64,000 bases of DNA from an uncultured Armatimonadetes bacterium (GTDB lineage Bacteria; Armatimonadota; Hebobacteria; Hebobacterales; Hebobacteraceae), in the NCBI GenBank assembly GCA_963716175.1, contig OY970296.1, forward strand, positions 309,302 to 373,301. Reading direction: 5' to 3'. A program made the translations under genes and the position numbers. The notes under the pieces were generated by a model. It worked only from the letters and a program-made list of their open reading frames with translations, made no database searches and was not told where the DNA came from. Below are positions 1-17,910 of this stretch, one piece after another; positions within the stretch are counted from its first letter, which is position 1; each line of letters starts with the position of its first letter.

Positions 1-255
1 AGGGTGGCCTACTACCAGGTGCGGAACGCGTTTCTGTTCACAAAGCGGAACCGCTGGCACGAAGGGAGCTTGCGGCGCCTGCAGTCGATCTGCGGCATCC
101 TTCGCTGGCACGTTACGCCTCGCCGCCTCCTTCATCCGACTCGGTTTGTGGCCCTCGCGCTGGGCTTCATCGCCGGGCTCTACCTGCTGGCGCGCGCCGA
201 GTCCCTGGCCCCGCCCGGAGGAAAGTGCGGGGCCGCGCGCGTCCCGACTGGCTGA
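1..255 (+). CDS. Partial CDS (3' end, runs off window start), glycosyltransferase-like C-terminus
   Basis: The frame is open from base 1 to TGA 253-255. The tail AYYQVRNAFLFTKRNRW plus one hydrophobic helix resembles the YYxxRN region near the C-terminus of many family-2 glycosyltransferases. It sits at the head of a co-directional glycan cluster. Confidence 0.4.
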   Translation, partial: RVAYYQVRNAFLFTKRNRWHEGSLRRLQSICGILRWHVTPRRLLHPTRFVALALGFIAGLYLLARAESLAPPGGKCGAARVPTG

Positions 256-270
256 GACTGAGGTTCGACC

Positions 271-1714: not shown

Positions 1715-1727
1715 GGGAGGCCGGTCG

Positions 1728-2915
1728 GTGGCGGCATTGGCCACAACTATCCTGTACCTGCTCGCTGCCGGCCTGCTGCTGGCGGTCCTGCATCTGTGGG
1801 CGCTGGCCCTGGTGGGACTGCTGCCGACAAAGAGAAGGACGACGCCGGGCACATGCGAGCCGAAGTTCATCATCGTGGTGCCCGCGCACAACGAGGAGAA
1901 GGATTTGCCAGGGCTGCTGGCGAGCCTGAGCCGCCTCGATTACCCGCTCGATCGCTACCAAGTCTGGGTTGTCGCGGACAACTGCACTGACAGCACCGTG
2001 CTGATCGCGCACGAGGCCGGCGCCTACTGCATCGAGCGCGCGGATCCAGCTCGCCTGGGCAAGGGCTATGCGCTCCAGGCGGCCTTCACCCACGCAATCG
2101 CCTGCGACGCGGACGCGGTGGCGGTAATCGACGCAGACACCACGGCTTCCCCCAGCCTGCTGAGGGAGTTCGCTCGCCGCATGAAGGCGGGGCCGGCAGC
2201 GCTCCAGGCCTCCTACCGGATGTCCGCAAAACCAGGCCCGTGGTCAGTCTGGCTGTCCGTCGAGAACCTGCTGGAAGAGCGCCTCTTCTACGGAGCGAGA
2301 GAGCGCCTGGGCTGCCCCACCTTGCTGCGAGGCAACGGCATGTGCTTCTCTCTGGAGGCGCTGCGGCTGGTGCCCTTCCGCTGTTTCTCGATCACAGAGG
2401 ACGTCGAGTACACGGTGGAACTGCTGAGAGCCGGCGTGCAGCCCCGCTTCGTGCCGGAGGCATCTGTGCTCTCGGAGTCTCCAGCCACCTTGGGCCAGAT
2501 CGCCCAACAGCGCGGGCGCTGGAGCGCCGGGCATTTCCAGCTTGCCTTGCGCGAGGCCCCCGGACTCCTCTTCCTCGGGCTGACCCGCAGGGATTTGGGC
2601 ATCTGCGAGTTCGCGGCGGCAATGCTCATCACCAGCAAGAGCGCCCTGGCCGGGCTCGCCGGCATCGGACTGGCCGGCGCCGGCCTCCTCCACTGGGGCC
2701 TTGGCCTGAGTCCAGGTCCGTTCTGGTGTTTTGCCACGGTCCTGGCGTTGATCTCGGCCTACTTCCTGACTGGGCTGGTGCTCTATCGTCCCTCAGCGCG
2801 TCAGGCGCTGGGACTGGCAGGCCTCCCCCTGCTGCTGGCATACCGGCTAGCGATACATGCGCGGGCCGCGCTCTCTTATCGCAGCGCCGGCTGGGTGAGG
2901 ACTGCCCGAAGCTAG
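1728..2915 (+). CDS. Family-2 glycosyltransferase with N- and C-terminal transmembrane helices
   Basis: Translation has FIIVVPAHNEE, DYPLDRYQVWVVADNCTDST, VIDADT and QQRGRWSAG (QxxRW-like). There are hydrophobic helices at both ends. GTG 1728 has GGAGG 7 nt upstream and lies 14 nt after the previous stop; the ORF track's longer start at 1599 overlaps the previous gene. Confidence 0.8.
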   Translation: MAALATTILYLLAAGLLLAVLHLWALALVGLLPTKRRTTPGTCEPKFIIVVPAHNEEKDLPGLLASLSRLDYPLDRYQVWVVADNCTDSTVLIAHEAGAYCIERADPARLGKGYALQAAFTHAIACDADAVAVIDADTTASPSLLREFARRMKAGPAALQASYRMSAKPGPWSVWLSVENLLEERLFYGARERLGCPTLLRGNGMCFSLEALRLVPFRCFSITEDVEYTVELLRAGVQPRFVPEASVLSESPATLGQIAQQRGRWSAGHFQLALREAPGLLFLGLTRRDLGICEFAAAMLITSKSALAGLAGIGLAGAGLLHWGLGLSPGPFWCFATVLALISAYFLTGLVLYRPSARQALGLAGLPLLLAYRLAIHARAALSYRSAGWVRTARS

Positions 2916-2944
2916 TGTAGCGCGCGAGCAGAGGTCATTCATTG

Positions 2945-4183
2945 ATGCCGACCACGGTTCTGCACCTGATCGCCAGCAACTTCCTCGGCGGACCCGAGCG
3001 ACAGATCCTTGGGCATGCCGACGCGGTCTCCCCCGCGCGGATACGCTGCCTCGTTGGTGGTTTCGTGGATGCGGGCCGCCCAAACGAACTGCTTGCGCAG
3101 GCGTCCGCGCGAGGTCACCGCACCTTCGCACTGGAAGCTCGCCGTCCCTGGTCCGCGGGGCAGGTAACGGACTTACAGCGGTATCTCCAGGACCAGCGGG
3201 TCCAGATCCTCTGCGCGCATGGCTACCGTGCGATTGCCGTTGGCCTGATCGCAGGCAGGCGAGCCGGCATCCCGGTATTGGCGTTCCCCAGAGGGTGGAC
3301 CGCGGAGAATCTGAAGGTCCGCCTCTTCCAGCTCATAATGGGCTATCTCCTGCGTTACGCGGATGCCGTGGTAGCGGTCTCTGAGGCGCAGGCCAGATAC
3401 ATCGAGTCGAGGTTCGGCGTGCGCCCCGCCAGAGTCTTTGCAGTCCACAACGCCGTTGACGCCGAGGCTTTCCCCAACGAACGGCACGGCAGCGATGACC
3501 TCCGTGCGGAGTTCGGGATACCGCCTGGCGCGCCGGTAGTCGTGTCCGCCGGACGATTGAGCCCGGAGAAGGGACATCGCCATCTGGTCGCTGCCGCGAG
3601 CGAAGCGCTCGCAGTCTGTCCAGACGCAAGGTTCCTGCTGGTGGGTGAAGGGCCGGAGCGCGCGAGGCTCGAGAGTGAGGTATCCCGGCTCGGCTTGGGA
3701 CGCCGCGTGCTGCTTGTGGGATTCCGGAAGGACGTCGCCCGCTTCTTGCTCGCCGCCGACCTGGTTGTGCTGCCTTCCCTGACGGAGGGGCTGCCCAATG
3801 TTCTGCTCGAGGCGGCGGCCGCAGGTCGAGCACGCGTGGCGACGGCGGTGGGAGGGGTTCCGGAGGTGATAGAGCACGGTGTGTCAGGGCTGTTGGTGGC
3901 ACCAGCCGACCCGGCCGCGCTCGCCAACGCCATCGCTGCTTGCCTCAGAGACAGCGGGCTGCGCCGGAAGCTCGGAGAAGCGGCGCGGATAGCGGCACGA
4001 GAGCGCTTCCGGTTCGATCATCAAGCGGGCTGCCTGGAGGCGATTTACGCGCAGCTCCTGCATCCGCTGTCTTGCTGGCAGTCAGTGGGGCCGTTCGAGG
4101 TGGATGGGTCCTCCTCATCTCTGTCGCTGCCCGATGTCTCAAGCTCCTCAGCCCGTGGAGGCGACGGTGCGAGCGGCCACTAA
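2945..4183 (+). CDS. GT-B fold glycosyltransferase, family 4 (group 1)
   Basis: N-terminus LHLIASNFLGGPERQIL and C-terminal domain LPSLTEGLPNVLLEAAAAGRARVATAVGGVPEVIEHGVSGLLV are typical GT4 motifs. Confidence 0.85.
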   Translation: MPTTVLHLIASNFLGGPERQILGHADAVSPARIRCLVGGFVDAGRPNELLAQASARGHRTFALEARRPWSAGQVTDLQRYLQDQRVQILCAHGYRAIAVGLIAGRRAGIPVLAFPRGWTAENLKVRLFQLIMGYLLRYADAVVAVSEAQARYIESRFGVRPARVFAVHNAVDAEAFPNERHGSDDLRAEFGIPPGAPVVVSAGRLSPEKGHRHLVAAASEALAVCPDARFLLVGEGPERARLESEVSRLGLGRRVLLVGFRKDVARFLLAADLVVLPSLTEGLPNVLLEAAAAGRARVATAVGGVPEVIEHGVSGLLVAPADPAALANAIAACLRDSGLRRKLGEAARIAARERFRFDHQAGCLEAIYAQLLHPLSCWQSVGPFEVDGSSSSLSLPDVSSSSARGGDGASGH

Positions 4184-5804
4184 GCTCGACTGGTGGGATG
4201 GGCTATGCGTCGCGGCATTGGCGGCGTTCGGGACGCTGTATGCGCTCCGGTTTCTCAGCCCGGTGTTCCACCCTCATCCGAGCGAAGACGCGGCCATCCT
4301 GATGCGCTATTCGCAGCATCTCGCCCAGGGTCACGGCATCGTCTGGAATATCGGTGACAAGCCTGTGGACGGGGCCACGGACTTCCTTTTCATGGTCTTG
4401 ATAGCAGGGCTGGCCAGGCTCGGCGTAGCCGTCGAGAGCGGGGTTCGCCTGGCGACGCTGCTGTCGCACCTGGCAACCATCGTGCTCGTGTATCTTGCCA
4501 CCCGGAAGCTGCACGGCGCCAGCCGCTTCGCCGGCCTGGTCACGGCCGGCTACCTGGCCATAGGCCCAGCGCCACGCTACATCGGGTCGGGCTTCGGCAC
4601 GCCGTTCTTCGCGTTGTCCGTGTGTTCCACTTGGTGGCTGGCCAACTCGCTGGCCGGTGGAAGCGCCTCATTGGGCAGATCGCTGGCGTTCGCTTCCTCC
4701 GGACTGGTCATGGGCCTGATCAGGCCGGAAGGCGCGCTGCTGGCCATACTGATGCTGCTGGCCGTGATCTATCTCAGGGGGCTGAACCGGTCTCGACTCG
4801 CTCTGCTCTGTTTCGTCGGCACCTTCGCACTCGCGGGAGGGGCCTATTTCCTGTGGCGGTGGCACTATTTCGGGTATCCTCTGCCAAACCCTTACTACAA
4901 GAAAGGAGGAGGCCACCTCTATCCCGAGGGCCTGATGGATGCCGTCAGCAACACTATCCAGATGAGTCTGCCTTTTTCCCTGGCCTACTTGCTGGGCCTG
5001 CGCTCGCGTGAGCTGACGAAGCGGACGATCTTCTCGCTGATACCAGTGGTCGGCTTCACCGGGCTGTGGCTGTTGCTGTCCAACGAGATGAACTACCTCG
5101 GGCGCTTCCAGTATCCGATCGTGCCCGTCATCCTGATGTCGTGGCCCTCCCTGGTCCAGGGCCTCGGCTCGGAGTGGCGGCTGCCTCGGCTGCAAGAGCT
5201 GGCCCCTCGCAGCCGAGCAGTGGCGGCGCTACTGGTGGCGGTGATGTTGGCGGGCATCGGGCTGTACCAGAAGAGACGCTATGGCGGAGTCATCTATTTC
5301 TACGATGGGAGATGCGATGTCGCGCACATGCTGAGCGACTATGCCAGCAAGCAGTACACGATGGCCACAACGGAAGCCGGGCTTCTGCCCTTCTACTCCG
5401 GATGGCGTGACCTGGACACCTGGGGACTGAACGACCCGTGGATTGCCCGCAACGGCGGAGTGACCGAGGCCTATCTGGAGAGCCGTAAGCCCGAGGTCAT
5501 CATGTTCCACGCCCCCTTCTCTCCGCTGGTGCCTCCCAACGGCAGCAGCGCCTGGTTCCACATGGTGATGGTGCTGCATCGCTTCGCCCAGAAGCACGGA
5601 TACCGTCTCGCGGCAGCGTTCGGCGAGACGCCTTTCAGAACGCACTATTACTACGTCCGCCCCGACTTCCCCGAGAGCGAGGCGATCGTGAGCAGGATTC
5701 GGACGATGGACTACACCTGGTACGCCAACGGCAAGCAGGCGATCAACTACGCCACCGTCACTCCTGCTGCCGGCCGCAAGGTTATGGAAGCAGCCAGGCC
5801 GTGA
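4134..5804 (+). CDS. Large polytopic membrane protein, possible GT-C-type glycosyltransferase
   Basis: About 10 hydrophobic helices are followed by a soluble ~170 aa C-terminal domain. An early loop reads DAAILMRYSQHLAQGHGIVWN...DGATDF. It sits inside the glycan cluster. The start is uncertain (4104/4134/4155) and it overlaps the GT4 3' end. Confidence 0.45.
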   Translation: MSQAPQPVEATVRAATKLDWWDGLCVAALAAFGTLYALRFLSPVFHPHPSEDAAILMRYSQHLAQGHGIVWNIGDKPVDGATDFLFMVLIAGLARLGVAVESGVRLATLLSHLATIVLVYLATRKLHGASRFAGLVTAGYLAIGPAPRYIGSGFGTPFFALSVCSTWWLANSLAGGSASLGRSLAFASSGLVMGLIRPEGALLAILMLLAVIYLRGLNRSRLALLCFVGTFALAGGAYFLWRWHYFGYPLPNPYYKKGGGHLYPEGLMDAVSNTIQMSLPFSLAYLLGLRSRELTKRTIFSLIPVVGFTGLWLLLSNEMNYLGRFQYPIVPVILMSWPSLVQGLGSEWRLPRLQELAPRSRAVAALLVAVMLAGIGLYQKRRYGGVIYFYDGRCDVAHMLSDYASKQYTMATTEAGLLPFYSGWRDLDTWGLNDPWIARNGGVTEAYLESRKPEVIMFHAPFSPLVPPNGSSAWFHMVMVLHRFAQKHGYRLAAAFGETPFRTHYYYVRPDFPESEAIVSRIRTMDYTWYANGKQAINYATVTPAAGRKVMEAARP

Positions 5805-7573
5805 GCGCGCATGCACCCGACAACCCGCCCCCGGGCCGGCCCACCTTCTCGCTCGTTGTGCCAATGCGCAACGAGCAGGGCTACGTTGAGGAGACCCTGC
5901 GCTCGCTCTTGGCCCAGCAGTATCCTCGGGACGCTGTCGAGATCTTGGTCGTGGACGGCTGCTCGGACGATTCCAGCCGCGCTGTCGTGGCCCGCATGGC
6001 GCATGAGCATGCGAATCTCTGCCTGCTCACTAACCCGGGGCGCTTGCCGGCTGCTGGCCGCAATGTCGGCATCCGAGCCGCCCGCGGCCGGTTCATCGGC
6101 ATCGTGGACTGCCACTCCTTCGTGCGGCCTGACTTTCTCGCCACGGCCGAGCGGTTGTTTGAGGAGACCGGCGCGCACTGCCTAGGCCGGCCCGTGGAGC
6201 TGTTCATTCGGACTGATTCCTATCTCCAGCGCGTTATCGGGGCGGCGCGGACATCATGGTTGGGCCACAACCTGGTCTCGCCCCGCTACAGCTTGGCCCG
6301 CGGTGCTATCAGCCCGCTCAGCGTTGGCATCCTCTACTGCAAGGAGGTGTTCGATCGAGTCGGCCTCTTCAACGAGGAGTTCGGCGCCTGCGAGGATGTC
6401 GAGTTCAACTTCCGCCTGAGCCAGGCGGGTGTGAGCACATGGACCGACCCGGCGCTGCAGGTCTACTATCACCCCCGCGGGTCGCTGGGGGCGCTGTTCA
6501 GGCAGATGAGGCGCTACGGGTACTGGCGCTACCGGCTGCTGCGGGGGCAGCAGAGGGCTTTCCACATGTCACAGGCAGCCCCCGCGGCCGCCCTGGCGCT
6601 GGCGGCGTTGACCATGCTTCCTGCCGCCTTGGGGGTACTGCCGCCAGCAGTGCCGGGAGCCCTGGTCGCGGGCTATGCTGCCCTAGTGGCTCTGGCCTCG
6701 GTGCGCGCGAGTCTGGCCCGAGGGCTGAGATACCTGCCGCTGCTCCCGCTGGCCTACGCTACCATTCATCTTGGCGCCGCGGTTGGCTTCTGGTCGGGTG
6801 TCTTCTCGGAAATGGGTCACAGCATCAGGCAGGTCCTGGTGAGGGCGGCGCGCTGGCGCGGCAGCGCTGGTGGACCATCGTGGGAGGAGACGTATGCCTC
6901 GCAGCGGCGCGCCAACAGCGGCTTCCTGGCGAGAGGCCTGAGGATGCGAACGGCCGCGGCAATCCAAGCGCTGAGCCTGTGCGTCTCTCCTCGCCAGCAG
7001 TTCTCGCTCCTCGATGTAGGAAGCGCGGGCGGTGAAATGCTGCCATCTCTGCGACAGGCATTCCCAGGGATCATCCCTATCGGCCTCGACCGTTCCCGCG
7101 ATCTCCTGACCTCAAGAGTGGCGCCTGACCTGGCGGTCCAAGCCGATGCCATCATGTTACCTTTCAGAACCCACTCCTTCGATGCCTGCCTGCTGGCGTC
7201 CGTCCTCAAGCATGTCAGCAGGGCGGATCAGGCTCTGGCTGAGATCGCGCGAGTGGTGAGGCCGGGTGGCGCGGTGGTGATCATAGACCCGAGCGCCCTG
7301 GCCATCAGAGTCGGGTGTCTGACGGGCTATCTGCACCGTTCCTCGATCGCCCACCGGTTCACTCTCCGCGACCTGCGCCGGATGCTCGCCGGCGCTGACC
7401 TGGAGACCGTCGCCACGCGTTTCCTGGTTGTGCACACGCGGTGGCCATGGCTCGACTCAGCACTGAACCGAGCGGTCAAGGCGCTGGGGCTCTTTCTGTT
7501 CATCCCGACCTGGGTCGTCCTAGTGTGTAGGCCAAGAGCGGGCGCTCTGGAGGGCCGCCTGGCAGAGCGCTGA
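5801..7573 (+). CDS. Fusion: GT2 glycosyltransferase, membrane helices, class I SAM-dependent methyltransferase
   Basis: N-terminal part has FSLVVPMRNEQGYVEETLRSLLAQQYP...VVDGCSDDS (GT2). The middle has 3-4 helices. The C-terminal part has LLDVGSAGGEM...DAIMLPF...LASVLKHV...VVRPGGAVVIIDP (methyltransferase type 11 motifs). The GTG start overlaps the previous TGA (GTGA). Confidence 0.8.
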   Translation: MSAHAPDNPPPGRPTFSLVVPMRNEQGYVEETLRSLLAQQYPRDAVEILVVDGCSDDSSRAVVARMAHEHANLCLLTNPGRLPAAGRNVGIRAARGRFIGIVDCHSFVRPDFLATAERLFEETGAHCLGRPVELFIRTDSYLQRVIGAARTSWLGHNLVSPRYSLARGAISPLSVGILYCKEVFDRVGLFNEEFGACEDVEFNFRLSQAGVSTWTDPALQVYYHPRGSLGALFRQMRRYGYWRYRLLRGQQRAFHMSQAAPAAALALAALTMLPAALGVLPPAVPGALVAGYAALVALASVRASLARGLRYLPLLPLAYATIHLGAAVGFWSGVFSEMGHSIRQVLVRAARWRGSAGGPSWEETYASQRRANSGFLARGLRMRTAAAIQALSLCVSPRQQFSLLDVGSAGGEMLPSLRQAFPGIIPIGLDRSRDLLTSRVAPDLAVQADAIMLPFRTHSFDACLLASVLKHVSRADQALAEIARVVRPGGAVVIIDPSALAIRVGCLTGYLHRSSIAHRFTLRDLRRMLAGADLETVATRFLVVHTRWPWLDSALNRAVKALGLFLFIPTWVVLVCRPRAGALEGRLAER

Positions 7574-7627
7574 GCCTGGCCAGGCGGCGCCGAGGGGTCA
7601 TTGGCACGGTTCTTGCATAGGTCCAAG

Positions 7628-9886
7628 ATGCGCCCGCCGGGGGGCTTTGTCCACGGAGGGCCTGGGGTGCTGGGGTCAGAGCGTGGCGCGCATCATCCGA
7701 TTCGAGAGCAGCAGACAGTGCGAGCGCAGGACCAGACGGCGCAGCCGACAGCCACCGTTCCGGCCGCTCCCAAGGCTGAGCCGAATCAGCCGCTAGGAGC
7801 CCTCTGGGAGGATATCAGGTCGCTCGGGAAGCAGTCGCTGATCTACGGCGCCGGGCTGTGGGCGACGAGCGCCGCGGGGTTCGTGCTAGTCCCACTCTAC
7901 GTCCGCCGTCTCTCGCCTCACGACTACGGCCTGCTCGAGATCCTGAACCGGACCTCAAGCATCCTTTCCACCTTTGCTCTCGCCGGGATGGTGCTGGCAG
8001 TCCTCCGGTTCTACTACCTCTACGATCGGCCAGAAGAGCGGCGCCGCGTGATCAGCAGCGCCCTGGCGTTTTCCTTCCTTACTTCGTGCTTGATCCAGAG
8101 CGCCATCGTGGTGTTCTCCCACGATCTCAGCCGCCTGCTGCTGGGCTCGCCTGACTACGCCGCGCTGTGCGTGCTTGCCGGCTTCATCACGATTGCGGAC
8201 ATGCTCTCTCTTCTCCCTGGCACGCTGCTGCGAGTCCGGGAGCAAGTGCTGCTGTACACCGTTTTCTCGGTCGCCAAGTTCGCTCTCGCCATCACGCTCA
8301 ACATCTGGTTTGTCGTCGGGCTGGGCCGCGGGCTACCCGGAGTCATGGAGGCCAACTTGGCAGCCAGCGCCGCGGTCGGGCTGGCGGTTGCGGTCTACTG
8401 CCTGCGCGCGGTCGGGCTCCGAGTATCAGGCACGATGCTGAGAGCCATGCTGGCTTTCGGCCTGCCGGTTGCTGCGGCAGGGATCCCAGGCATTATCACC
8501 GAGAACCTCGATCGCTACCTGCTGCTCCATATGAGATCAGCCGCGGAGGTCGGCATCTACGCCCTGTCGGTCAGATTCGGGACGCTGCTATCCCTCCTTT
8601 TGTTTCAGCCCTTCGGCTTCATCTACTCGCAGTTCATGTTCAAGGTGGCAGATCGCCCGGACGCCAGCCGGATCTACGGCAAGGTGACTACCGTGGTCAC
8701 GGCGCTCGGGGTGTGGCTGACGGTGGCGCTTGCGACCTTCGCTCCCGACATCGTCTCCCTGGTCTCGCCGGGTAAGGCCTACGCCCTGTCCGGCGTGGTC
8801 GCTCCCGTCCTTCTCATAGGCTATCTCTTCTATGGGGTAAGCCCTCTGCTCGAGGTGGGGATCTACCTGCAAAGGAAGACTCTCTGGAAGCCAGCAATAG
8901 TTGCCGTCCAGGCGGTGGCATGCACCGTTCTCTTGTGGCAGTTCGTCCCCCGCTGGGGCGCAACCGGAGCAGCATGGGCACTGGTCGGCTCCGAGGCCGT
9001 TCTCTGCCTCTGCCTTTACCTGGTGGCACGGCGGCTGTTCCGGATCTCCTACGAATGGCCTCGCCTGGCCGCGCTGCTCGCGGTGCTGGTGGCAGCCATT
9101 GCGCTTGGCGCCAGGCTCGCCGGATCTCCCTCCCACCTTGGTTTCGTGAGCAGGCTGGGCTTGGTCGCTGGAGTGGCCCTCCTGGTGGGAGCCACTGCCG
9201 TGTTGAGACCCAGGGCAGGGATAGGTACGGCGCGCCTGTCCTCCTTTGCCTCGTGCCTGCCTAACCTGATCCCTAGCGGCGCCCGGCGTGCCGCCCGACT
9301 TGCCGCAGAGCCGTTGATACGAGGCGCCTGGCATCTGGACCCAGGGGTGCTGATAGTACGATATCACTCCATTTCGGATCCGTCGGACCCCGGCAACCCC
9401 ATCTCGCCTGGCATCTGCACCAGCCCTGCAGATTTCTATGAGCAGATGGCACTGCTCGCGGCCCAGGCGACGCCAGTCTCTCTTGACACGGTGCTCGACG
9501 CGTTCGACCGAGGAGTCAGGCTGCCTGCGCGTCCCGTGGTGGTGACCTTCGATGACGGTTACGCGGACAACTGCGAGATCGCTCTGCCGATTCTTCGGGA
9601 CCGTGGAATCCCCGCGGCTTTCTTGATCACGACCGGATGGACAGGTACGGATATCGAGCCCTGGTTCATCGCTATCAGGTCAGCTTTCTCGGCAACCCGC
9701 CGGCGGTCGTGGGCACCAGCGCCCTCAGACCGCGAGTACCCGCTTGACTGCGAAGACGGTCGGCGCGCCGCGCGGCGCGCCGCCGCACGCATCCTCGCGC
9801 GGCTAAGTCTCGCCGAGCAGGAAACGTGGCTGGGACAGCTTCGCCGCGAACTGGAGATCGACGCGCCGGCCAGGGGGCCCCCCTGA
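7628..9886 (+). CDS. Fusion: Wzx-like polysaccharide flippase (MOP superfamily) plus N-terminal half of a NodB polysaccharide deacetylase
   Basis: About 12-14 helices starting LGKQSLIYGAGLWATSAAGFVLVPLYVRRLSPHDYG are typical of polysaccharide biosynthesis flippases. They are followed by VLIVRYHSIS...PVVVTFDDGYADNCEIALPILRDRGIPAAFLITTGW (NodB motif 1). The ORF ends at TGA 9884-9886 straight after a G5C6 run. The start is uncertain (7601/7628). Confidence 0.7.
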   Translation: MRPPGGFVHGGPGVLGSERGAHHPIREQQTVRAQDQTAQPTATVPAAPKAEPNQPLGALWEDIRSLGKQSLIYGAGLWATSAAGFVLVPLYVRRLSPHDYGLLEILNRTSSILSTFALAGMVLAVLRFYYLYDRPEERRRVISSALAFSFLTSCLIQSAIVVFSHDLSRLLLGSPDYAALCVLAGFITIADMLSLLPGTLLRVREQVLLYTVFSVAKFALAITLNIWFVVGLGRGLPGVMEANLAASAAVGLAVAVYCLRAVGLRVSGTMLRAMLAFGLPVAAAGIPGIITENLDRYLLLHMRSAAEVGIYALSVRFGTLLSLLLFQPFGFIYSQFMFKVADRPDASRIYGKVTTVVTALGVWLTVALATFAPDIVSLVSPGKAYALSGVVAPVLLIGYLFYGVSPLLEVGIYLQRKTLWKPAIVAVQAVACTVLLWQFVPRWGATGAAWALVGSEAVLCLCLYLVARRLFRISYEWPRLAALLAVLVAAIALGARLAGSPSHLGFVSRLGLVAGVALLVGATAVLRPRAGIGTARLSSFASCLPNLIPSGARRAARLAAEPLIRGAWHLDPGVLIVRYHSISDPSDPGNPISPGICTSPADFYEQMALLAAQATPVSLDTVLDAFDRGVRLPARPVVVTFDDGYADNCEIALPILRDRGIPAAFLITTGWTGTDIEPWFIAIRSAFSATRRRSWAPAPSDREYPLDCEDGRRAARRAAARILARLSLAEQETWLGQLRRELEIDAPARGPP

Positions 9887-10272
9887 TGATGTCGTGGGAG
9901 CAAGTGGCCAAGGTCAGAGATGCGGGGATGACGATCGGAGCGCACAGCGTGAGCCATCCGAACCTGGCCTGGCTGCCGCCCGCGGCCCAAGAGGCTCAGA
10001 TGCGCGAGTCGAAGCTGGCGCTGAGCTCTCATCTCGGCATCCCAGTGCGACACTTCTCGTACCCCAGCCCGATAGATCCACCTTGTCTCAACCGCGACAG
10101 CATGGCAGCCGCGCGGCAGGTGGGCTTCGCCGCGGCGCTGAGCACGTTCGCGGGAATGGCCCGGCCAGGTTCCAATCGTTTCGCCCTGCCGAGGATGAAC
10201 CAGCCCGCCATGGCGGCGCGGACAGCGGGCTTCTCTGCTTGCTTCCTGCGTGCAGCTCTGAAGATGCCTTAG
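9886..10272 (+). CDS. C-terminal half of NodB polysaccharide deacetylase (separate ORF or split by indel)
   Basis: Translation MMSWEQVAKVRDAGMTIGAHSVSHPNLAWL...VRHFSYPS carries the HSxxH and YP motifs that complete the NodB domain begun in the previous ORF. ATG 9886 overlaps TGA 9884-9886 by 1 nt. Confidence 0.65.
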   Translation: MMSWEQVAKVRDAGMTIGAHSVSHPNLAWLPPAAQEAQMRESKLALSSHLGIPVRHFSYPSPIDPPCLNRDSMAAARQVGFAAALSTFAGMARPGSNRFALPRMNQPAMAARTAGFSACFLRAALKMP

Positions 10273-10357
10273 AGACTGAAGAAGCCTACCGGGCCAGGAG
10301 GATGAAGGCTTGGCACCTAGTTCGCCCGCGCCCACCGTGGGGGCAGGGCCATCGTCA

Positions 10358-12718
10358 ATGACAGCGCAGATCGAGCTGGTGCGCAGCTCGGACGGCCTGG
10401 CCTCGCTCCAGCCGGAGTGGGACGAACTCGCGTCGCGTAGCCCCGCCTATCCGTTCACGAGCCACGTCTGGCAGGGGACCTGGTGGCAGGCGTTCGGCAG
10501 GCCACCCCGGAGCCTTTACACTCTGGTGCTGAGGCGAGGTGGCCGGGTCCTTGGCATATTCCCGCTCATGCTGACCAGAGGCCGCCTGCGGGGGATTCCC
10601 CTGCGCATGCTGACATTTGCTCAGAGCGCCCAGGCACCCCGTGCCGATGTTCTCCTGCGGGAAGACGACCCCCAGGTGCTGACGGAGCTACTCGAGTACC
10701 TCAGCGCCGCGCCCGGCTGGGATTGCCTGGTGCTGCGGAAGATCCCCGCCAGCTCCCCCTCTCTGACCATGCTTCAGTCCAGCCTTCGGGATCAGGGCTA
10801 CTGCTACCACCTCCATCAGAGCCTTCGTTGCCCCTATGTGCGCATAGACGGGGACTGGGAGGGTTTCCTGCAGTCCCGATCCGTGAAATTCCGCAAGAGC
10901 TGTCGCAACAAGCTGAACCGCGTCCAGCGCAGCCATCGCATGGAGGTAGAGCACATCTGCGACTGGGCTCGCTTCACGTCGGTCTATGATGAGATCTGTG
11001 AAGTCTCGTCCCGCAGCCGGCTGGTCGCTCGCCAGGCCGCCCTGGCGAGTCGGCCTGAGCGGGTTGGGTTCTACCGCCGCCTCGCCCAGCAAGCGGCCTC
11101 TCGCGGCTGGCTCAGCGTCTGGACTCTGCGCTTCGACGGTCGCATGGTTGCCTACGAGTACCACCTCGCCGTCAATGGAGTGAACCACGGGCTGCTGGCC
11201 GCATTCGACGACGACTTCGAGGCGCTGTCTCCAGGTTCTGTGCTCGACTATCACGTAGTGCGACAGCTTTTCCTCGATGGGCGCGCGGGATACGATCAAG
11301 GCGGCTGGGAGGCTTTCTACAAACGAAGATGGACAGACCAGGCCCTGGAGCATGTGGACCTGATCGCGTTCCCACGGCGCTGCCGGGCGGCGTTGGCCAA
11401 CCGGTGGGAGTACGGCATCGTGACCTGGCTGAGGGAGCGTCGCAACCAGCTGAGGCCCTCCTCGGGGTCGGATCATGCAGCTCGGTGGCTGGCCATCCGG
11501 GAGAGCATATCCTGGGAGCCCTCTGAGGCCCCTCACCTGGAGCACGAGGATGAAGAAGGCGCGTGGGGCCCTGATCTGAACCCGTTCCACCTGGCCCGGG
11601 ATGGATGGCAGATGCTGCGCCGCGATCTGGCGCGGGACCTGAACTACTACCGTGTGCGGCCGACGAACCTGCTTCCCTTCCTGACTTACCGCTGCAGCTC
11701 GAGATGTCGCACCTGCAGCATGTGGCAGCGGCGGAGCGTGCTCCCAGAGCTCAGCCTCGCTCAGTGGCAGACGTTCCTCACCTCCCTTGCAGAGATACAG
11801 CCCAGATCACTGCGCCATGTAGAGTTCTTCGGGGGCGACGTGCTTCTGAGGCCCGATGTCTTGATGCCCCTGATCGAGCAGGCATCCGCCATCGGCCTGG
11901 ACACCGCCGTCCCCCTCAATGGCATCCTTCTGGACGAGCGCATGGCCGCCCAGCTTGTGGCCAGTGGGGTCCATACCGTCTACCTCAGCGTGGATGGAGT
12001 GGGCGAAGTGCATGACCGCGTCCGCGGCGTGCCTGGCAACTTCGCGCTTCTTAGGCGCGGCCTGGCAGCATTGCGCGCGGCCCGCGGAGATCGCCGTTCC
12101 CCAGAGATCGTCGCCATCTGCACCGTCTCGCGCCTCAACGCGGACAGCTTCGAGCAGGTGCTTCCCTTCGCGGCCGAAGCGGGATGCGACAGACTTCACT
12201 TTGAGTACGCGGGAGAATTCCCGGCCGAGGCCTGTGCGCGCTCGGTGCTCGACGGGCACCGGCCGGCCCCCTACTTCTCGAGTTCCAACGGCTCGGTGCT
12301 GGTGGAGGCGGCACAGGCCTATCGCATCAAGCGCGAGCTCTCGCTGATCCGGTCATCTCCTGCTCCCGGCAAGCTGTATGTCGCCACCACCAACATAGAC
12401 GTGCTTACTACGGAGCAGATGGTGCTGGGCCGCTTCGACGTACGCCAGTGCTATGTGGCCCGACTGATCGTCACCGTTGACCCCTTCGGGGGCGTGCTGG
12501 CCTGCCCGTTCTTCGACACCTACCTCCTGGGCAACATCCTCGAGCGACCACTCTCCGAGATCTGGAACGGACCGACGCACCGGCGGTTCCTGCAGGCACA
12601 GCGGCGGGGGGAATTCCCCATCTGCCGCCACTGCATCATGAGCGTGGAGCGGAATCCCACCTTCGGGCAGAGAGTCGTGAAGCGATACCTGGCATGGCGG
12701 AAACTGGCGCGCAGTTGA
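10358..12718 (+). CDS. Fusion: FemAB/CelD-like acyltransferase (GNAT-related) plus radical SAM enzyme with SPASM/twitch-like C-terminus
   Basis: N-terminal half has LQPEWDELASRSPAYPFTSHVWQGTWWQAFG...VLGIFPLML...KFRKSCRNKLNR (CelD/BioF2-like fold signatures). C-terminal half has FLTYRCSSRCRTCSMW (CX3CX2C at 11693-11716), FFGGDVLLRPD, and the terminal cysteines CPFF...ICRHC. ATG 10358 is preferred over the track start at 10310. Confidence 0.75.
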   Translation: MTAQIELVRSSDGLASLQPEWDELASRSPAYPFTSHVWQGTWWQAFGRPPRSLYTLVLRRGGRVLGIFPLMLTRGRLRGIPLRMLTFAQSAQAPRADVLLREDDPQVLTELLEYLSAAPGWDCLVLRKIPASSPSLTMLQSSLRDQGYCYHLHQSLRCPYVRIDGDWEGFLQSRSVKFRKSCRNKLNRVQRSHRMEVEHICDWARFTSVYDEICEVSSRSRLVARQAALASRPERVGFYRRLAQQAASRGWLSVWTLRFDGRMVAYEYHLAVNGVNHGLLAAFDDDFEALSPGSVLDYHVVRQLFLDGRAGYDQGGWEAFYKRRWTDQALEHVDLIAFPRRCRAALANRWEYGIVTWLRERRNQLRPSSGSDHAARWLAIRESISWEPSEAPHLEHEDEEGAWGPDLNPFHLARDGWQMLRRDLARDLNYYRVRPTNLLPFLTYRCSSRCRTCSMWQRRSVLPELSLAQWQTFLTSLAEIQPRSLRHVEFFGGDVLLRPDVLMPLIEQASAIGLDTAVPLNGILLDERMAAQLVASGVHTVYLSVDGVGEVHDRVRGVPGNFALLRRGLAALRAARGDRRSPEIVAICTVSRLNADSFEQVLPFAAEAGCDRLHFEYAGEFPAEACARSVLDGHRPAPYFSSSNGSVLVEAAQAYRIKRELSLIRSSPAPGKLYVATTNIDVLTTEQMVLGRFDVRQCYVARLIVTVDPFGGVLACPFFDTYLLGNILERPLSEIWNGPTHRRFLQAQRRGEFPICRHCIMSVERNPTFGQRVVKRYLAWRKLARS

Positions 12719-13389
12719 GCGGCCGGCCCCCGATCACGCGAATCAGGCGGGTGTGGCAGGAGGGAGGTCTGCCCGCTATCTACGGGTGCATTGCCGAACG
12801 GGTGCTGCGGCACAATTCGGCAATTTGGCACGAGCGCCAGCTGGTCGGCGAGCTGCCCGCAGCGAAGGCGAAGCTGCCCGTGAGCATCATCCGCGACGAC
12901 CTTCGAGGGACGCTGGAATGGCTGTACCGCAGACCGCACGATCCGCGTGAACTTGGTCTGGCTCTTGCTGAGGGCCATCTGTCTCCCCGCGCCGAACTCA
13001 ACGGCGCCTTGGTCGCCTATGTCAAGGCTGGCTGGGGTGCGGTCTGGGTCTCGGACTACCAGGGCTTTGTCAGTTTCCCACCCGAGGCCGCCTTCATCTA
13101 CGATACCTATGTAGAGCCAGCTCTCCGGCGCCAGGGAATCGGAAAAGCGATGGTCGCGGCCGTCATGAAGGAGCTGCAAGCGCGTGGGTTCGCGCGCGTG
13201 TTCTGCCACATCCCAGAATGGAATCGCGCCTCGCGCCATCTCTACGAGTCCGTCGGGTTCGTAGCACGAAGGAAGATCGTGTTCGCGCGGATTCTCGGGC
13301 TGCCTATCCTGTGGCCCCATCCGCGGATGCTGTGGCGGCACCCGCCTTCGTCTACGGAGCATCCGACATCAGGTCACAGCCGATCATGA
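12694..13389 (+). CDS. GNAT family N-acetyltransferase
   Basis: Translation has IYDTYVEPALRRQGIGKAMVAAVMKELQARGFARVFCHI...NRASRHLYESVGF (acetyl-CoA binding Q/RxxGxG/A motif). It overlaps the previous gene by 25 nt. Confidence 0.75.
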   Translation: MAETGAQLSGRPPITRIRRVWQEGGLPAIYGCIAERVLRHNSAIWHERQLVGELPAAKAKLPVSIIRDDLRGTLEWLYRRPHDPRELGLALAEGHLSPRAELNGALVAYVKAGWGAVWVSDYQGFVSFPPEAAFIYDTYVEPALRRQGIGKAMVAAVMKELQARGFARVFCHIPEWNRASRHLYESVGFVARRKIVFARILGLPILWPHPRMLWRHPPSSTEHPTSGHSRS

Positions 13390-13441
13390 GCGACAGGGTC
13401 CAGCAGAAGGCAGATGCGAGCCATTACAGGATTGCAGTGCC

Positions 13442-14566
13442 GTGACATACCGGCTCCTCGACTGGCTGGCTTGCCCTAGGAACTCCTGCTTCCCCCTCAA
13501 GATCACCGCCGCGATCGAGAGGCAGCTTCCCGCCTGTTCAGCCGGGAGAAGCCCCATCCGATGCGATGCCTACTGCGGCCGGCGACAAGCGCCAGTGGAT
13601 GATATCCCCGCGGAAGAATGCCTGGCCTGCGCAACTGTAGAGGTGGTGGAGGGTGAGATTCGGTGCGAGTGCTGCGGCGCGATCTCCACCTTGACTGACG
13701 GCATCCCGGACATGCTGCCTCCAGAGCTGGCCGCGGCAGCTAGACTGGGAGCAGCCGCATCTGCGCCGCGCGGCCTCAGGGACAAGGCCAGCGAGATGGC
13801 GGCAAGAGACCAGCAGGCGGCAAGCTACAATAGCAGGCGCAACCCATTCGATAGGGAAGCCGAACTGGGAGTGCTCCTGAGGTCACTCGATGTCCGGCCC
13901 AGAGACCGGATCCTCGACGGCGGGGCGGGAACCGGGTTTGTCACCCTTGCCTGCGTAGCGCGAAATGTAGAGCTGGCAGCGGTAGACTTCTCCCGGGAAT
14001 CGCTGAAGATGCTGCGGAGCGCCATCCCGTTGCCGCTACTCTCTCAGACCCATCTCGTGCAAGCGGACCTCACTAGGCTGCCCTTTCGCGACGGTATCTT
14101 CGACAAGGCGGTGCAGGCCCAGGTGCTGGAGCATCTGCCCACAGCAGAAGACCGAGATGCCGCCGTGTCTGAGACCAAGCGGGTGCTTACGCGGGGCGGC
14201 CGGTTCGTGCTCTCCGCCTACAACTTCTCCCTATGGAAGAAGCGGTCGGCCGCCAGGGGCGAAGTGCACTTCGCTCAGCGAGAAGGTTACCATGGCGGGC
14301 GGATCTACTACCGGAACTTCGAAGCCGCGGAGCTCCGCGCTCTGCTGTCGCAGCACTTCCAGGTCAGGAGCATCCGCGGTGTCATCAATGAGCTCCCGGA
14401 GGATCTTCAATACCGGCTGAGACCATTCGGGCTCTTGGTGGAAAGGGGATTGCAGATGACGGCGCTGTCTGTCCACCTGGGCCGTCTGCTCGTTGCCAGC
14501 TGTCGTCGCGAGGGCCAGCCGCCCACCCCAAATCAGGGCTCAAGCAGTCCTCGGCCGGCAGCGTGA
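13442..14566 (+). CDS. Trm112-like zinc-ribbon domain fused to class I SAM-dependent methyltransferase
   Basis: N-terminal part has LLDWLACPRNS...IRCECCGAISTLTDGIPDML (Trm112-type). It is followed by ILDGGAGTGF...VDFSRESL...LPFRDGIFDKAVQAQVLEHL...LTRGGRFVLSAYN. Confidence 0.75.
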   Translation: MTYRLLDWLACPRNSCFPLKITAAIERQLPACSAGRSPIRCDAYCGRRQAPVDDIPAEECLACATVEVVEGEIRCECCGAISTLTDGIPDMLPPELAAAARLGAAASAPRGLRDKASEMAARDQQAASYNSRRNPFDREAELGVLLRSLDVRPRDRILDGGAGTGFVTLACVARNVELAAVDFSRESLKMLRSAIPLPLLSQTHLVQADLTRLPFRDGIFDKAVQAQVLEHLPTAEDRDAAVSETKRVLTRGGRFVLSAYNFSLWKKRSAARGEVHFAQREGYHGGRIYYRNFEAAELRALLSQHFQVRSIRGVINELPEDLQYRLRPFGLLVERGLQMTALSVHLGRLLVASCRREGQPPTPNQGSSSPRPAA

Positions 14567-14597
14567 TCTGCTGACTGGCCCAGCGCAGCCTGCCCAC

Positions 14598-15818
14598 CTA
14601 GTCCACAGGCCCAAAGCTAGAGCGCAGTATCCGCAGCAGCTCCCTTACAGCCTTCCGCCTGAGGACAGAACGCGGGACGCATCTCGCCAGCCGACTTGCG
14701 ACCGAACGGCGCAGTCGCCCGTGCTCGGTTGCGGGGCCTGATGTGTCGCGGTAGCGATCTTCGGCTGTCCGCCGAGCAAGAGTAGCAGGCGAGACTCGCT
14801 GTGCCGCGCTCTGTTGCAGCAGCCGCGTCACCATCCCACCGAACTCCTCTATGCACAGTTGGCGCACTCGGGGCAATGTCACAGCGAGATGCCCCAAGCG
14901 CGTCCCGATGACCCCACCCGAGTTGCAGATGAAGTCCGGTAGCACCGGGATTCCTCTCGCCATAAGGGCAGCCTCGGCAGCATCAGCGCAGGGCGCGTTG
15001 GCAGCCGGGACCACAGCCCTAGCCCTAAGAGCCTTTGCCGTCGCCTCGTTCACCGAGCCCACCCGCGCGGCGGGCACGAGAATATCGAATGAGGCCTGGA
15101 ACAGATGCTCCTTGGGGACGCACTCCCAGTCGCCGGGCTGATTCACGAACGCGTCTCCATGCCGGCTCCTCGCTGCCAGCAGCGCCTCCAGATCGAGACC
15201 TGTTTCCTTGACGACCGCGCCTCGCACGGTAGAGGCGGCGGTGATCCGGCCGCCCCAGGCGCCTAGCTCACGCGCCAGGTGGATGCCAACCCGGCCCATG
15301 CCCTCGATGCCCACCGCGCAAGCCTCTGGGCCGAGGTCCAGCCACGCTGCGGCCGCTTTGACCGCTCCGAACACGGTCAGCGCCGTATAGTAGGAGCTAT
15401 CCGCGATGCCAGCGAACGGCACACCGGCTCCCTGGTAGATCGCCTCAATATCGCCGGGGCCGCAGTTGAGGTCGGTCCAGGGGTAGTAGATGCCGGCTCT
15501 CAGCAGGGGCGCGCAGTGCCTGCCAAAGGAGGCGAATATGGCTCTGCGCTGCTCCTGCGACACTTCCTCAGGCAGGACAACTCCCGCCTTTGCCCCACCT
15601 GATCGGCACTGCCAGAATGCGTACTTATACGTCATCACGCGGGCAAGCTGCTCCACCTCCGCGACAGTCACATCGGCGGCCGCCCGCACGCCACCCGTTG
15701 CGCTGCCGCGCCATACCGAGTGGACTACGACGAAACCGCGCATCCCCGTGTCGGCATCAGCGCACTGGACGGTGAGAAGTGGGTCTGGCGGAATCACCCC
15801 GTCCGCTCCTCTTGGCAA
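14598..15818 (-). CDS. Glu/Leu/Phe/Val dehydrogenase family protein
   Basis: Translation has GGVR...MTYKYAFWQCRSGGAKAGV (catalytic Lys region) and the Rossmann motif GIEGMGRVGIHLAREL. Length is 406 aa. Confidence 0.85.
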   Translation of the reverse strand: MPRGADGVIPPDPLLTVQCADADTGMRGFVVVHSVWRGSATGGVRAAADVTVAEVEQLARVMTYKYAFWQCRSGGAKAGVVLPEEVSQEQRRAIFASFGRHCAPLLRAGIYYPWTDLNCGPGDIEAIYQGAGVPFAGIADSSYYTALTVFGAVKAAAAWLDLGPEACAVGIEGMGRVGIHLARELGAWGGRITAASTVRGAVVKETGLDLEALLAARSRHGDAFVNQPGDWECVPKEHLFQASFDILVPAARVGSVNEATAKALRARAVVPAANAPCADAAEAALMARGIPVLPDFICNSGGVIGTRLGHLAVTLPRVRQLCIEEFGGMVTRLLQQSAAQRVSPATLARRTAEDRYRDTSGPATEHGRLRRSVASRLARCVPRSVLRRKAVRELLRILRSSFGPVD

Positions 15819-16144
15819 GTCCTCACGTTAGCAGTACCACCTGCGACTCCGGAATCGAACGACTCAAGGTAACCCGGCTCACCGAACTGGCCCTTCGCCT
15901 TCTGTGATACCATCCGGGCCCTGCTGGGTCAAGGGGACTACGCGATGCGCGCGAGGAGGGCCAGCTCCGCTCATCATGCCGATGCTAGGCAGCAGCCCGG
16001 TGCGGATCGAAGCGCGGTCAGCCACTTTCCGCCCAGACCAGCTCAAAACGCGTGGGCCAGACGCAGCCATCCTTCGCAGCCGAGGCGGCTCCAGTAGCCT
16101 TGGGCAAGGCGGCTACCTACCCCTCCTGCCACACCGGCCCCTGG

Positions 16145-17383
16145 CTACATAGACAGGTGGAAGGTGCGGGACAGGTACACCGCGAGCTGGTCTCGAGTGC
16201 AGGTATTCGCGGGGTAGTAGAGACCATCGGGATAGCCCGAGGTCACGCCCTTGGCCGCCACGTACTCCACGTGTTTGTAGCACCACGACCAGGTGTTGGT
16301 CGGCGTCACGTCTGCAAAGGTCGGGGTCTCGGGCGGGGTGTAGGTATTGAGCCCTTGTTCTCCCAACGGGCTGGCAAGGCATCGGGCCAAGAATACGGCC
16401 ATCTGGGCTCGATTCACCAGCGTAGTGGGATGGAACTTGCCGTCAGGATATCCGAGGATGATGCCGTACCCGTACTCGTACTCCACGTATTTGAAGGCCC
16501 AGTAGTCACTGGGCACGTCCGGGAAAGTCGCCCCACCAGATGCCTCCGGCACGTTCCGCTCGCCGTCTGCGATAGCGCGGGCGAGGTACACGGCTATCTG
16601 GTCGCGGGTAATGCCCTCCAGAGGCCGGTAGCTGCCCTCCGGGTATCCGAGCACCAGATCCGCCTTCAGGCAGCCCATGATCCCACCATAGGCCCAATAA
16701 TCCCGGGGCACGTCCGTGAATCCCGAGACCACGTAGCGCGGCTCGGTCTTGCTCCCGGTTCCCGCCGTGTTGCTGGCCCATAAGGTCACGGTGTACGCAC
16801 CCGGTCGGGTGTAGACATGGCCGGGATTCTGCTCTAGGCTTGTGCCTCCATCCCCGAAGTTCCACTCCCAAGAGGTCGGATTGCCGCTGCTCAGGTCAGT
16901 GAACGCGACTGTGAGCGGAGTCTGGCCGTCCGTGGGGTCCGCGCCAAAGGCGGCGTTCGGAGGTGATTCGGACACCGTGATGCACGCATCCCGCCAGATG
17001 GTGGCGGCCCCTGCCCCATTGTGAACGGTAAGCCCTACCGGGTAGGTGCCGCCCCGGGTGTAGACGTGGCTCGGGTTCTGCTCTACGCTCGTCTGCCCGT
17101 CCCCGAAGTCCCACAGCCAAGCTACCGGGCTGCCGTTGGATAGATCGGTGAAGTTGACTGTCAGCGGCACCATCCCGCTCGTCGGAGAGGCTGCGAAGTT
17201 AACCGTGAACGAGGACACCTGAAACTCCACCAGGTTCGACACCACGAGGTTGCCATCAGCGATAGCAACCGCCTGGTTGGTTATCACAGTGCCTGCGGGC
17301 GTGGACGCTGCCACTGGGGCAAGAGCAAGAAACACCAGCAGCAGCCCAAACACTGCAGCGGCAAGGCGAGAGCCCAGCCGCAT
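16145..17383 (-). CDS. Exported surface protein: 2 PKD domains plus 3 C-terminal SLH domains
   Basis: Signal peptide MRLGSRLAAAVFGLLLVFLALAPVAAS. Two PKD units (PLTVNFTDLS...WDFGDGQTS..NPSHVYTRGGTY). Three SLH units (FTDVPRDYWAYGGIM...GYPEGSYRP...ITRDQIAVYLARAI and so on). The track start at 17473 is probably too far upstream. Confidence 0.85.
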   Translation of the reverse strand: MRLGSRLAAAVFGLLLVFLALAPVAASTPAGTVITNQAVAIADGNLVVSNLVEFQVSSFTVNFAASPTSGMVPLTVNFTDLSNGSPVAWLWDFGDGQTSVEQNPSHVYTRGGTYPVGLTVHNGAGAATIWRDACITVSESPPNAAFGADPTDGQTPLTVAFTDLSSGNPTSWEWNFGDGGTSLEQNPGHVYTRPGAYTVTLWASNTAGTGSKTEPRYVVSGFTDVPRDYWAYGGIMGCLKADLVLGYPEGSYRPLEGITRDQIAVYLARAIADGERNVPEASGGATFPDVPSDYWAFKYVEYEYGYGIILGYPDGKFHPTTLVNRAQMAVFLARCLASPLGEQGLNTYTPPETPTFADVTPTNTWSWCYKHVEYVAAKGVTSGYPDGLYYPANTCTRDQLAVYLSRTFHLSM

Positions 17384-17910
17384 CCCACGTGTTCGATTCT
17401 CCCCTGTCGCCCGACACAGCAACACCGGCACAGCCTGTGTCGCTTTCCGCATCAGCTTACCCCGCATTCCCATCGCGCCCCCGAGCGAAAGCCGCGACCC
17501 GCTGCCCTTCGGCTCGCCGCCACCGCGACAAGAGCGACATCACACTGGCTCAGCAGCAAGGCGGCGAGTGCGCCGCACCTCCGCGTCTGCACCCGACCCT
17601 ATCGCGCACGCCGTCCGCCCCGAGCCACTTTGCAGTCTAGGCGCTGCTTCCAGAGTCGTCAACAGATAGGAGGTCGCACGCCTACCAGACAGGCCGTGGC
17701 TCGGTCACGCTCCGTAACCGCAAATCCCGGCTCGCGCACGCAGGTAGCACCACGGATCCGGCTCCCGTCCCCGGCCGGCGACCACTACCTCATGTATACC
17801 ACGCTGGCACCGGCAGGTCAAACGTGGGTCGCCTCTAGCTGCGACCCGGAGGGCTGGACTCCTCGGGATTACGCCAGTCTGCGGCCACTCCCACGTGTGG
17901 CGGCGAAACT

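Follow-up and report, generated by a model that had tools for sequence, protein, structure and literature searches.

Gene content of the locus

The window, by which we mean the whole stretch of 64,000 nt analysed here, comes from a genome assembled as a single contig of 4.56 Mb and rated 91% complete. On its plus strand, a reading frame stays open from position 10310 (TTG) or 10358 (ATG) to 12718, with the stop codon at 12716–12718, and the apparent product measures 802 aa from the TTG and 786 aa from the ATG. The first-pass annotation of this stretch described a continuous single ORF joining a FemAB/CelD-like acyltransferase domain to a radical SAM/SPASM-like enzyme. For the letters of the window this was borne out: no internal stop was found, and both domain calls were right. 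A domain-architecture search for PF13480, PF04055 and SPASM matched all three above the curated Pfam cut-offs, with PF13480 (Acetyltransf_6) at residues 177–323 (profile positions 2–143 of 143; 81.9 bits, gathering threshold 22 bits), PF04055 (Radical_SAM) at residues 442–583 (46.9 bits, cut-off 29.5) and PF13186 (SPASM) at residues 698–759 (43.3 bits). The motifs quoted in the annotation were all found in place, the CX3CX2C exactly at 11693–11716, as were the extra C-terminal cysteines (the Cys of CPFF at 12503 and CRHC at 12623–12634).

The setting in a glycan cluster, which had also been claimed, agrees with the Pfam content of the plus-strand genes on both sides of the ORF. Their order is Wzy-like, GT2, GT4, GT2-methyltransferase, Wzx-NodB, the apparent ORF, GNAT and methyltransferase, and an exosortase gene is located 22 kb before the window start in the same genome. 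With one base restored between 11564 and 11565, a correction that we regard as very probably right (see below), the gene models in and near the locus would be as follows; L043 denotes an independent metagenome contig.

7601..10272, + strand: Wzx-type flippase fused to NodB polysaccharide deacetylase (PF01522), frame broken at the G5C6 run 9873–9883
10358..about 11565, + strand: FemAB/CelD-like transferase gene of the duplicated-GNAT type (PF13480), product of about 402 aa ending ...EHEDEEGA; the start may be TTG 10310
11550..12718, + strand: radical SAM gene with a C-terminal SPASM/twitch-type domain (PF04055 and PF13186), product of about 389 aa, MKKARRGPDLNPF...WRKLARS
11564..11565, + strand: site of the one-base difference, T-A-GGGG in L043 and T-GGGG in the window, beside the G4 run 11565–11568 (blastn)
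11693..11716, + strand: CX3CX2C, site of the radical SAM [4Fe-4S] cluster (Cys446, Cys450 and Cys453 of the 786-aa reading)
12449..12634, + strand: four invariant C-terminal cysteines, C698-X12-G-X4-C716 ... C756-X2-C759
12694..13389, + strand: GNAT N-acetyltransferase gene (PF00583), its first 25 nt shared with the end of the radical SAM gene

Family placement of the two halves

The C-terminal half belongs to the radical SAM superfamily, as PF04055 scored above its cut-off and the CX3CX2C is conserved. Seven cysteines are invariant in an alignment of 12 family members, namely those of the CX3CX2C (C49, C53 and C56) and four in the C-terminal part (C301, C319, C359 and C362), arranged as CX12GX4C ... 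CX2C. The seven-cysteine pattern of a two-cluster SPASM domain (CX9-15GX4C ... CX2CX5CX3C ... C) is incomplete, with four of its cysteines present. The C-terminal domain thus fits a twitch-like half-SPASM, with cysteines that would be enough for one auxiliary Fe-S cluster.

None of the named radical SAM equivalogs (PqqE, MftC, NirJ, AhbC/D, BlsE, anSME-type and others) was matched at family level, the best scores being 74–83 bits against NCBIfam cut-offs of 265–650. In the PDB, weak sequence matches were obtained to SkfB, BlsE and PqqE, and to BtrN for the C-terminal stretch. The SPASM maturases PqqE, MftC, SkfB and NirJ/AhbD gave the best NCBIfam and PDB matches, and the PF13186 profile was passed; however, the scores are 4- to 10-fold under the equivalog cut-offs, the SPASM cysteines are reduced to four out of seven, no precursor peptide gene was seen, and the neighbours are glycan enzymes. 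BtrN (PDB 4M7T) and the cytosylglucuronate decarboxylase BlsE (PDB 7VOB) are alike to the enzyme of the window in the CX3CX2C, the four further cysteines and the carbohydrate context, but the matches are weak (E-values of 1e-3 to 1e-6), and the score against TIGR04466 (BlsE) is far below the family cut-offs.

For the N-terminal half, the search against NCBIfam at E ≤ 1e-5 returned only a 24.5-bit match to BspF, with TIGR03019 absent and no equivalog found, and among solved structures none was related to it by sequence. TIGR03019 and TIGR03006 model a FemAB-family protein and a polysaccharide deacetylase that are paired in EPS loci of the PEP-CTERM/exosortase kind. The window resembles this arrangement in that its EPS-type cluster has a PF13480-type gene beside that for a NodB deacetylase, and the genuinely fused relatives described below likewise adjoin exosortase EpsH, NodB-DUF3473 or PEP-CTERM genes. 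We know of no radical SAM and GNAT partners in the described FemAB/deacetylase pair of such loci.

Orthologues encoded by two separate genes

In an exhaustive, profile-free search, the nearest relative of each half was found to be a stand-alone protein (P0008, P0018 and P0010). The FemAB-like half shares 61% identity with P0008 (394 aa, on contig L035) and 59% with P0018, and the radical SAM half 51% with P0010 (390 aa); the N-terminus of the latter half is homologous to those of the stand-alone orthologues P0158 and P0010. A word-indexed protein search returned no full-length relative and had a stand-alone radical SAM protein as its best match; the fused homologues and the closest orthologues came from the exhaustive search. 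Among the genomes of 40 relatives, no orthologue, fused or otherwise, was detected: matches of approximately 30% identity covered one half only, spanning residues ~5–345 or ~440–765 and never both.

The 15-kb contig L035 is fully syntenic with positions 1–17,500 of the window. It carries a 394-aa FemAB-like gene, a gap of 42 nt, a 382-aa radical SAM gene and then the GNAT gene, preceded by an intact 825-aa Wzx-NodB gene and followed, on the other strand, by genes for glutamate dehydrogenase and a PKD/SLH protein. Two separate genes, 19 nt apart, are also present in L036. In L034, the FemAB-like gene stops with GAT GAA TAA, and its GAT GAA contains an ATG whose offset equals that in the window; read from this ATG, L034 gives MNKGRS and the window MKKARG.

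The same orthologues bear on the acidic inter-domain linker that had been proposed. The tails of FemAB-like orthologues align with this stretch in the fusion frame, P0018 reading RYLAVRERFSWGGSEESSYGRDSDE and then a stop where the window reads RWLAIRESISWEPSEAPHLEHEDEE; EHEDEE is accordingly the natural C-terminal tail of a FemAB-like protein, just as P0018 ends in ...GRDSDE*. Likewise, PDLNPFHLARDGWQMLRR, which directly follows the G run, is the natural N-terminus of a radical SAM protein, the L035 orthologue starting with M-PELSPAVLAREAWHILRR. The apparent fusion thus contains no linker: the tail of the first protein is followed directly by the N-terminus of the second.

The junction and a one-base difference

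A scan of metagenome contigs yielded a sequence that covers the junction, L043, an independent JGI metagenome contig (Ga0315280_10038187) of 4,435 nt. Blastn produced one alignment with the window, covering positions 11091–15524 over 4,435 nt at 98.3% identity, with 75 mismatches and a single gap. This sole gap is an extra A in L043, placed between T11564 and G11565 of the window, the junction letters being GGCGCGTAGGGGCCC in L043 and GGCGCGTGGGGCCC in the window. Without the A, the junction reads GCGTGGGGCC, and with it GCGTAGGGGCC. The FemAB-like ORF of L043 terminates with ...EHEDEEGA* at a TAG (GCG TAG), and a separate second ORF, MKKARRGPDLNPFHLARDGWQ...WRKLARS, holds the radical SAM and SPASM domains. 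The two halves, which in a genuine fusion would share one frame in an independent assembly, are thus parted in L043 by a TAG and a separate ATG. A stop or indel in the linker, leaving two ordinary adjacent genes, was what the first-pass annotation itself had named as incompatible with a single gene, and two adjacent genes are the state of L043 and of the closer orthologues.

When the A is restored in the window, the ORF resolves into two genes with 17 nt in common, whose products of 402 and 389 aa match the stand-alone orthologues in length. Without the A there is no TAG stop and ATG 11550 falls in the frame of the upstream gene, which creates the apparent fusion. This ATG is retained in the window and is preceded by an SD-like GGAGCACGAGG; the series GGAGCACGAGG-ATG(11550)-AAG-AAG-GCG-CGT meets the G4 run 11565–11568 one frame on from the fusion frame. 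A GC3 frame plot over the linker region has frames 0 and 2 both high at 11555–11585.

Two other placements of an indel were considered and ruled out. One, at the G4 run 11464–11467, would give a TGA stop at 11524 and an ATG start at 11612, and was rejected as the fusion-frame sequence downstream of it, RWLAIRESISWEPSE..., is homologous to the tails of P0008 and P0018. The other assumed that the G4 at 11565–11568 was in truth a G5 run called one base short; L043 places the missing base as an A before the run. The start codon and overlap layout predicted from this G-run guess nonetheless agreed with those found in L043.

Frame breaks in the assembly and the origin of the apparent fusion

Other genes of this genome are interrupted in a comparable way. 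The NodB domain 1.7 kb upstream is split, with PF01522 positions 4–46 in one frame and 47–122 in the next, meeting at the G5C6 run 9873–9883. The single-copy ftsZ is encoded in two abutting stretches in different frames (profile positions 9–85 and 83–331). A survey by tblastn, with 308 ORFs from 398 kb of two genomes of the same family (G010 and G014) as queries, revealed 23 distinct frame breaks, sites at which a reference protein carries on in a different frame of this genome. The aligned conserved coding DNA came to about 291 kb, which makes about one break per 12 kb. The genes with such breaks include carB (four times), obg (at a G7 run) and an mraY-containing gene. As a living cell could not carry all of them, we consider these frame breaks to be uncorrected indel errors. 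The unusual multi-domain ORFs and split genes of this assembly are therefore not to be interpreted before its indels have been polished.

From the comparison of sequences, we conclude that the 786/802-aa ORF is very probably an artefact of one missing A in an indel-rich assembly, and that the locus most likely consists of two overlapping genes. The artefact is favoured because indel errors are frequent in this assembly and occur in essential genes, whereas real frameshifts are comparatively rare in a working genome; it is further supported by the two-gene state of L043, L034, L035 and L036 and by the second gene having kept its own ATG.

It should be noted that some observations point away from an artefact. 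What is missing is an A that borders the G4 run, and the run itself has not changed in length. The surveyed frame breaks are mostly of the opposite sign, 19 having an extra base and four a missing one, although ftsZ and NodB each lack a base. L043 differs from the window at 1.7% of sites and hence represents another strain, so that a genuine indel difference between the two is possible. Finally, fused forms are viable in other phyla, and a real fusion would not be lethal.

The alternative is a real but very young fusion: this strain would have lost a single base and thereby the TAG inside the 17-nt overlap, so that both activities came to lie on one polypeptide, much as happened independently in other phyla. 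This appears to us improbable, albeit worth keeping in mind. The frame of the window does read through without a stop and the junction leaves both domains complete, yet the start codon and SD-like stretch of the second gene are intact. L043 is from a different strain (75 mismatches), and as the two enzymes are genuinely fused in P0011, P0012, P0013 and L037, the product could function; but frame-breaking indels also occur in the essential single-copy ftsZ, obg and carB, so that most of them must be errors, such errors are far more numerous than plausible real frameshifts, and a confirmed frame break, that of NodB, is located close by in the same cluster. A bifunctional enzyme that is established and typical of the lineage, its domains joined by an acidic linker, as originally read from the open frame and the three Pfam domains in one ORF, is hardly credible, since there is no spare linker (the stretch is a stand-alone C-terminal tail followed by a stand-alone N-terminus), two genes are present in the 98.3%-identical L043 and in orthologues of 50–62% identity, and a fused orthologue occurs in 0 of 40 relatives' genomes. 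Of that proposal, the single polypeptide finds no support in L043 and the closer orthologues; the functional coupling of the two enzymes gains support from conserved adjacency and true fusions elsewhere.

A conserved triad and true fusions in other phyla

Whatever the state of the junction, the two enzymes and the GNAT that follows them form a recurrent unit. The triad of FemAB-like, twitch-like radical SAM and GNAT genes, adjacent, co-directional and in that order, was found in at least 10 loci (the window, L035, L043, L037, L038, L039, L041, L047, L048 and L049). The survey of orthologue neighbourhoods revealed that adjacency of the FemAB-like and radical SAM genes is conserved across several phyla; they are separate neighbours in L038 (a Zixibacteria MAG), L039 (a Desulfuromonadales MAG) and the metagenome contigs L045 and L046. 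A PF00583 GNAT gene follows the radical SAM gene in five of six further loci tested, and in P0009 the GNAT is fused into the protein, which comprises FemAB-like, GNAT, radical SAM/SPASM and GNAT parts.

True single ORFs with all three Pfam domains were found in L037 (a Gemmatimonadota MAG), P0011, P0012 and P0013; P0014 combines PF13480 and PF04055 in one ORF, with SPASM under the search threshold. The L037 ORF, P0011, P0012 and P0013, together with the four-domain P0009, are uncharacterised proteins collinear with the reading of the window at 31–37% identity; they share its three domains, and the same GNAT gene comes next. They differ in having real linkers of ~40–70 residues and in belonging to other phyla, whereas the nearest relatives of the window are all of the two-gene type. 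Conserved adjacency and true fusions are good genomic evidence, and they support the view that the FemAB-like and radical SAM enzymes are functionally coupled in one pathway.

The pairing appears to be undescribed in the searchable literature: we found no description of FemAB-like and radical SAM enzymes paired in an exopolysaccharide context, and PF13480 led only to an unrelated Brucella effector. The first-pass annotation did not recognise the architecture either. The architecture is not unique to the window, given the fusions in P0011–P0014 and L037.

A possible tailoring pathway

NodB deacetylases free sugar amines, and FemAB-type duplicated-GNAT enzymes pass aminoacyl or acyl groups to amines. 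Among radical SAM enzymes with one auxiliary cluster, BtrN and BlsE act on sugar-like substrates by oxidation or decarboxylation, and epimerisation is known from related enzymes. Following these precedents, the upstream NodB deacetylase is the likely supplier of a free sugar amine and would act first, on a sugar of the repeat unit. The FemAB-like enzyme would then load this amine with either an acyl group or an aminoacyl group donated by aminoacyl-tRNA. The radical SAM enzyme would next remove a hydrogen atom, either from the newly attached group or from the sugar itself, with epimerisation or oxidation as the most plausible outcome. Lastly, the GNAT might N-acetylate the new free amine. C-methylation, which had been listed among the possible reactions, is unlikely because Pfam detected no cobalamin-binding or methyltransferase domain in the enzyme. 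We infer the chemistry of this whole pathway from enzyme families, the observations being domain content, gene order, synteny, the two-gene relatives and the fusions elsewhere.

It is conceivable, and we put it forward tentatively, that the triad constitutes a so far undescribed tailoring pathway that spans phyla and belongs to EPS loci, those of the exosortase type among them. Its Rosetta-stone fusions come with two, three or four domains, and its product may be a radical-modified N-acetyl-aminoacyl group, such as an epimerised or oxidised one, on a NodB-freed amino sugar. To our knowledge, radical SAM chemistry on bacterial surface polysaccharides has been little explored, and few of the enzymes that add amino-acid substituents to amino sugars have been identified. 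Being conserved, and within a little-explored chemistry, the triad is a reasonable target for biochemistry, best pursued in an organism with a reliable sequence. The lasting interest lies in the conserved triad and the true fusions elsewhere rather than in the fusion of the window; if the A were truly absent at 11564/65, this strain would in addition harbour a newly arisen natural fusion of the enzymes for the first two steps.

The glycan loci that carry the triad often have a link to exosortase genes. P0013 is encoded in a low-GC exosortase EPS locus, in which genes for Wzz, a kinase, a priming transferase, NodB-DUF3473, EpsH and a free FemAB-like protein precede the fusion, and those for GNAT, DUF362 and glycosyltransferases follow it. 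The P0012 fusion gene is followed by those for GNAT and a PEP-CTERM protein, and exosortase or DUF3485 genes are located upstream in L047 and L039. In L040, L041 and L047, a second FemAB-like paralogue sits between the FemAB-like and radical SAM genes.

Frame breaks in the window and elsewhere in the genome

The gene encoding a Wzx flippase joined to a NodB deacetylase is interrupted in the window, and the NodB Pfam profile is divided there, with positions 4-46 read in one frame and 47-122 in another. As the syntenic orthologue on contig L035 is one unbroken gene of 825 aa, the Wzx-NodB fusion itself is real, and the break in the window gene is an indel of the missing-base type. Further breaks were found in conserved genes of the same genome; across the genome, conserved coding DNA has approximately 1 frame break in every 12 kb.

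Frame breaks and their positions (C1, the single contig of the genome)
Window 9873-9886: Wzx-flippase/NodB-deacetylase gene, break at a G5C6 run, Pfam profile split between frames
C1:3587603-3588564 (outside the window): ftsZ, sole copy, divided between two frames, break at approx. 3587824-3587833
Near C1:3777645-3779217 (outside the window): carB, four breaks
Near C1:3478926-3478938 (outside the window): obg, frame broken at a G7 run
Near C1:3941683-3941696 (outside the window): mraY-containing gene, broken

Over window positions 11091-15524, in the comparison with the independent metagenome contig L043, the FemAB-like tail (471 nt) is free of mismatches, and the following four genes have 1.2-2.7%. 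Synonymous and non-synonymous differences across this span were almost equal in number (39:35), a share of amino-acid changes that is unusually high for close strains. Possible sources of this pattern are substitution errors, a consensus built from mixed strains, and recombination.

Relatives of the FemAB-like protein

The gene call of the stand-alone orthologue P0018 (59% identity) begins only at residue ~128, with 325 nt of its contig still lying 5' (L034:1-325); its N-terminal part may be missing or in a different frame. Tandem pairs of FemAB-like paralogues precede the radical SAM gene on the 5' side in several loci (L048:5859-10001, L040, L041 and L047), one paralogue in L048 being fused and the other free, and the two may correspond to two successive transfers. 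P0009 (1183 aa, from the representative library) holds the whole triad of FemAB-like transferase, radical SAM enzyme and GNAT in a single polypeptide, with the GNAT duplicated (FemAB-like, GNAT, radical SAM/SPASM, GNAT).

Gene neighbourhood

Two further genes concern the surroundings of the triad.
Window 13442-14566: methyltransferase whose N-terminal region is Cys-rich (zinc-ribbon-like), flanked by GNAT and glutamate dehydrogenase genes
C1:286230-286982: exosortase (PF09721, 230 bits), 22 kb before the window start

The order GNAT, methyltransferase, glutamate dehydrogenase is common to the window and L043; the syntenic L035 has no methyltransferase between the GNAT and glutamate dehydrogenase genes. 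Since the exosortase gene lies close upstream of the glycan cluster of the window, this cluster may be part of a larger exosortase/PEP-CTERM EPS region.
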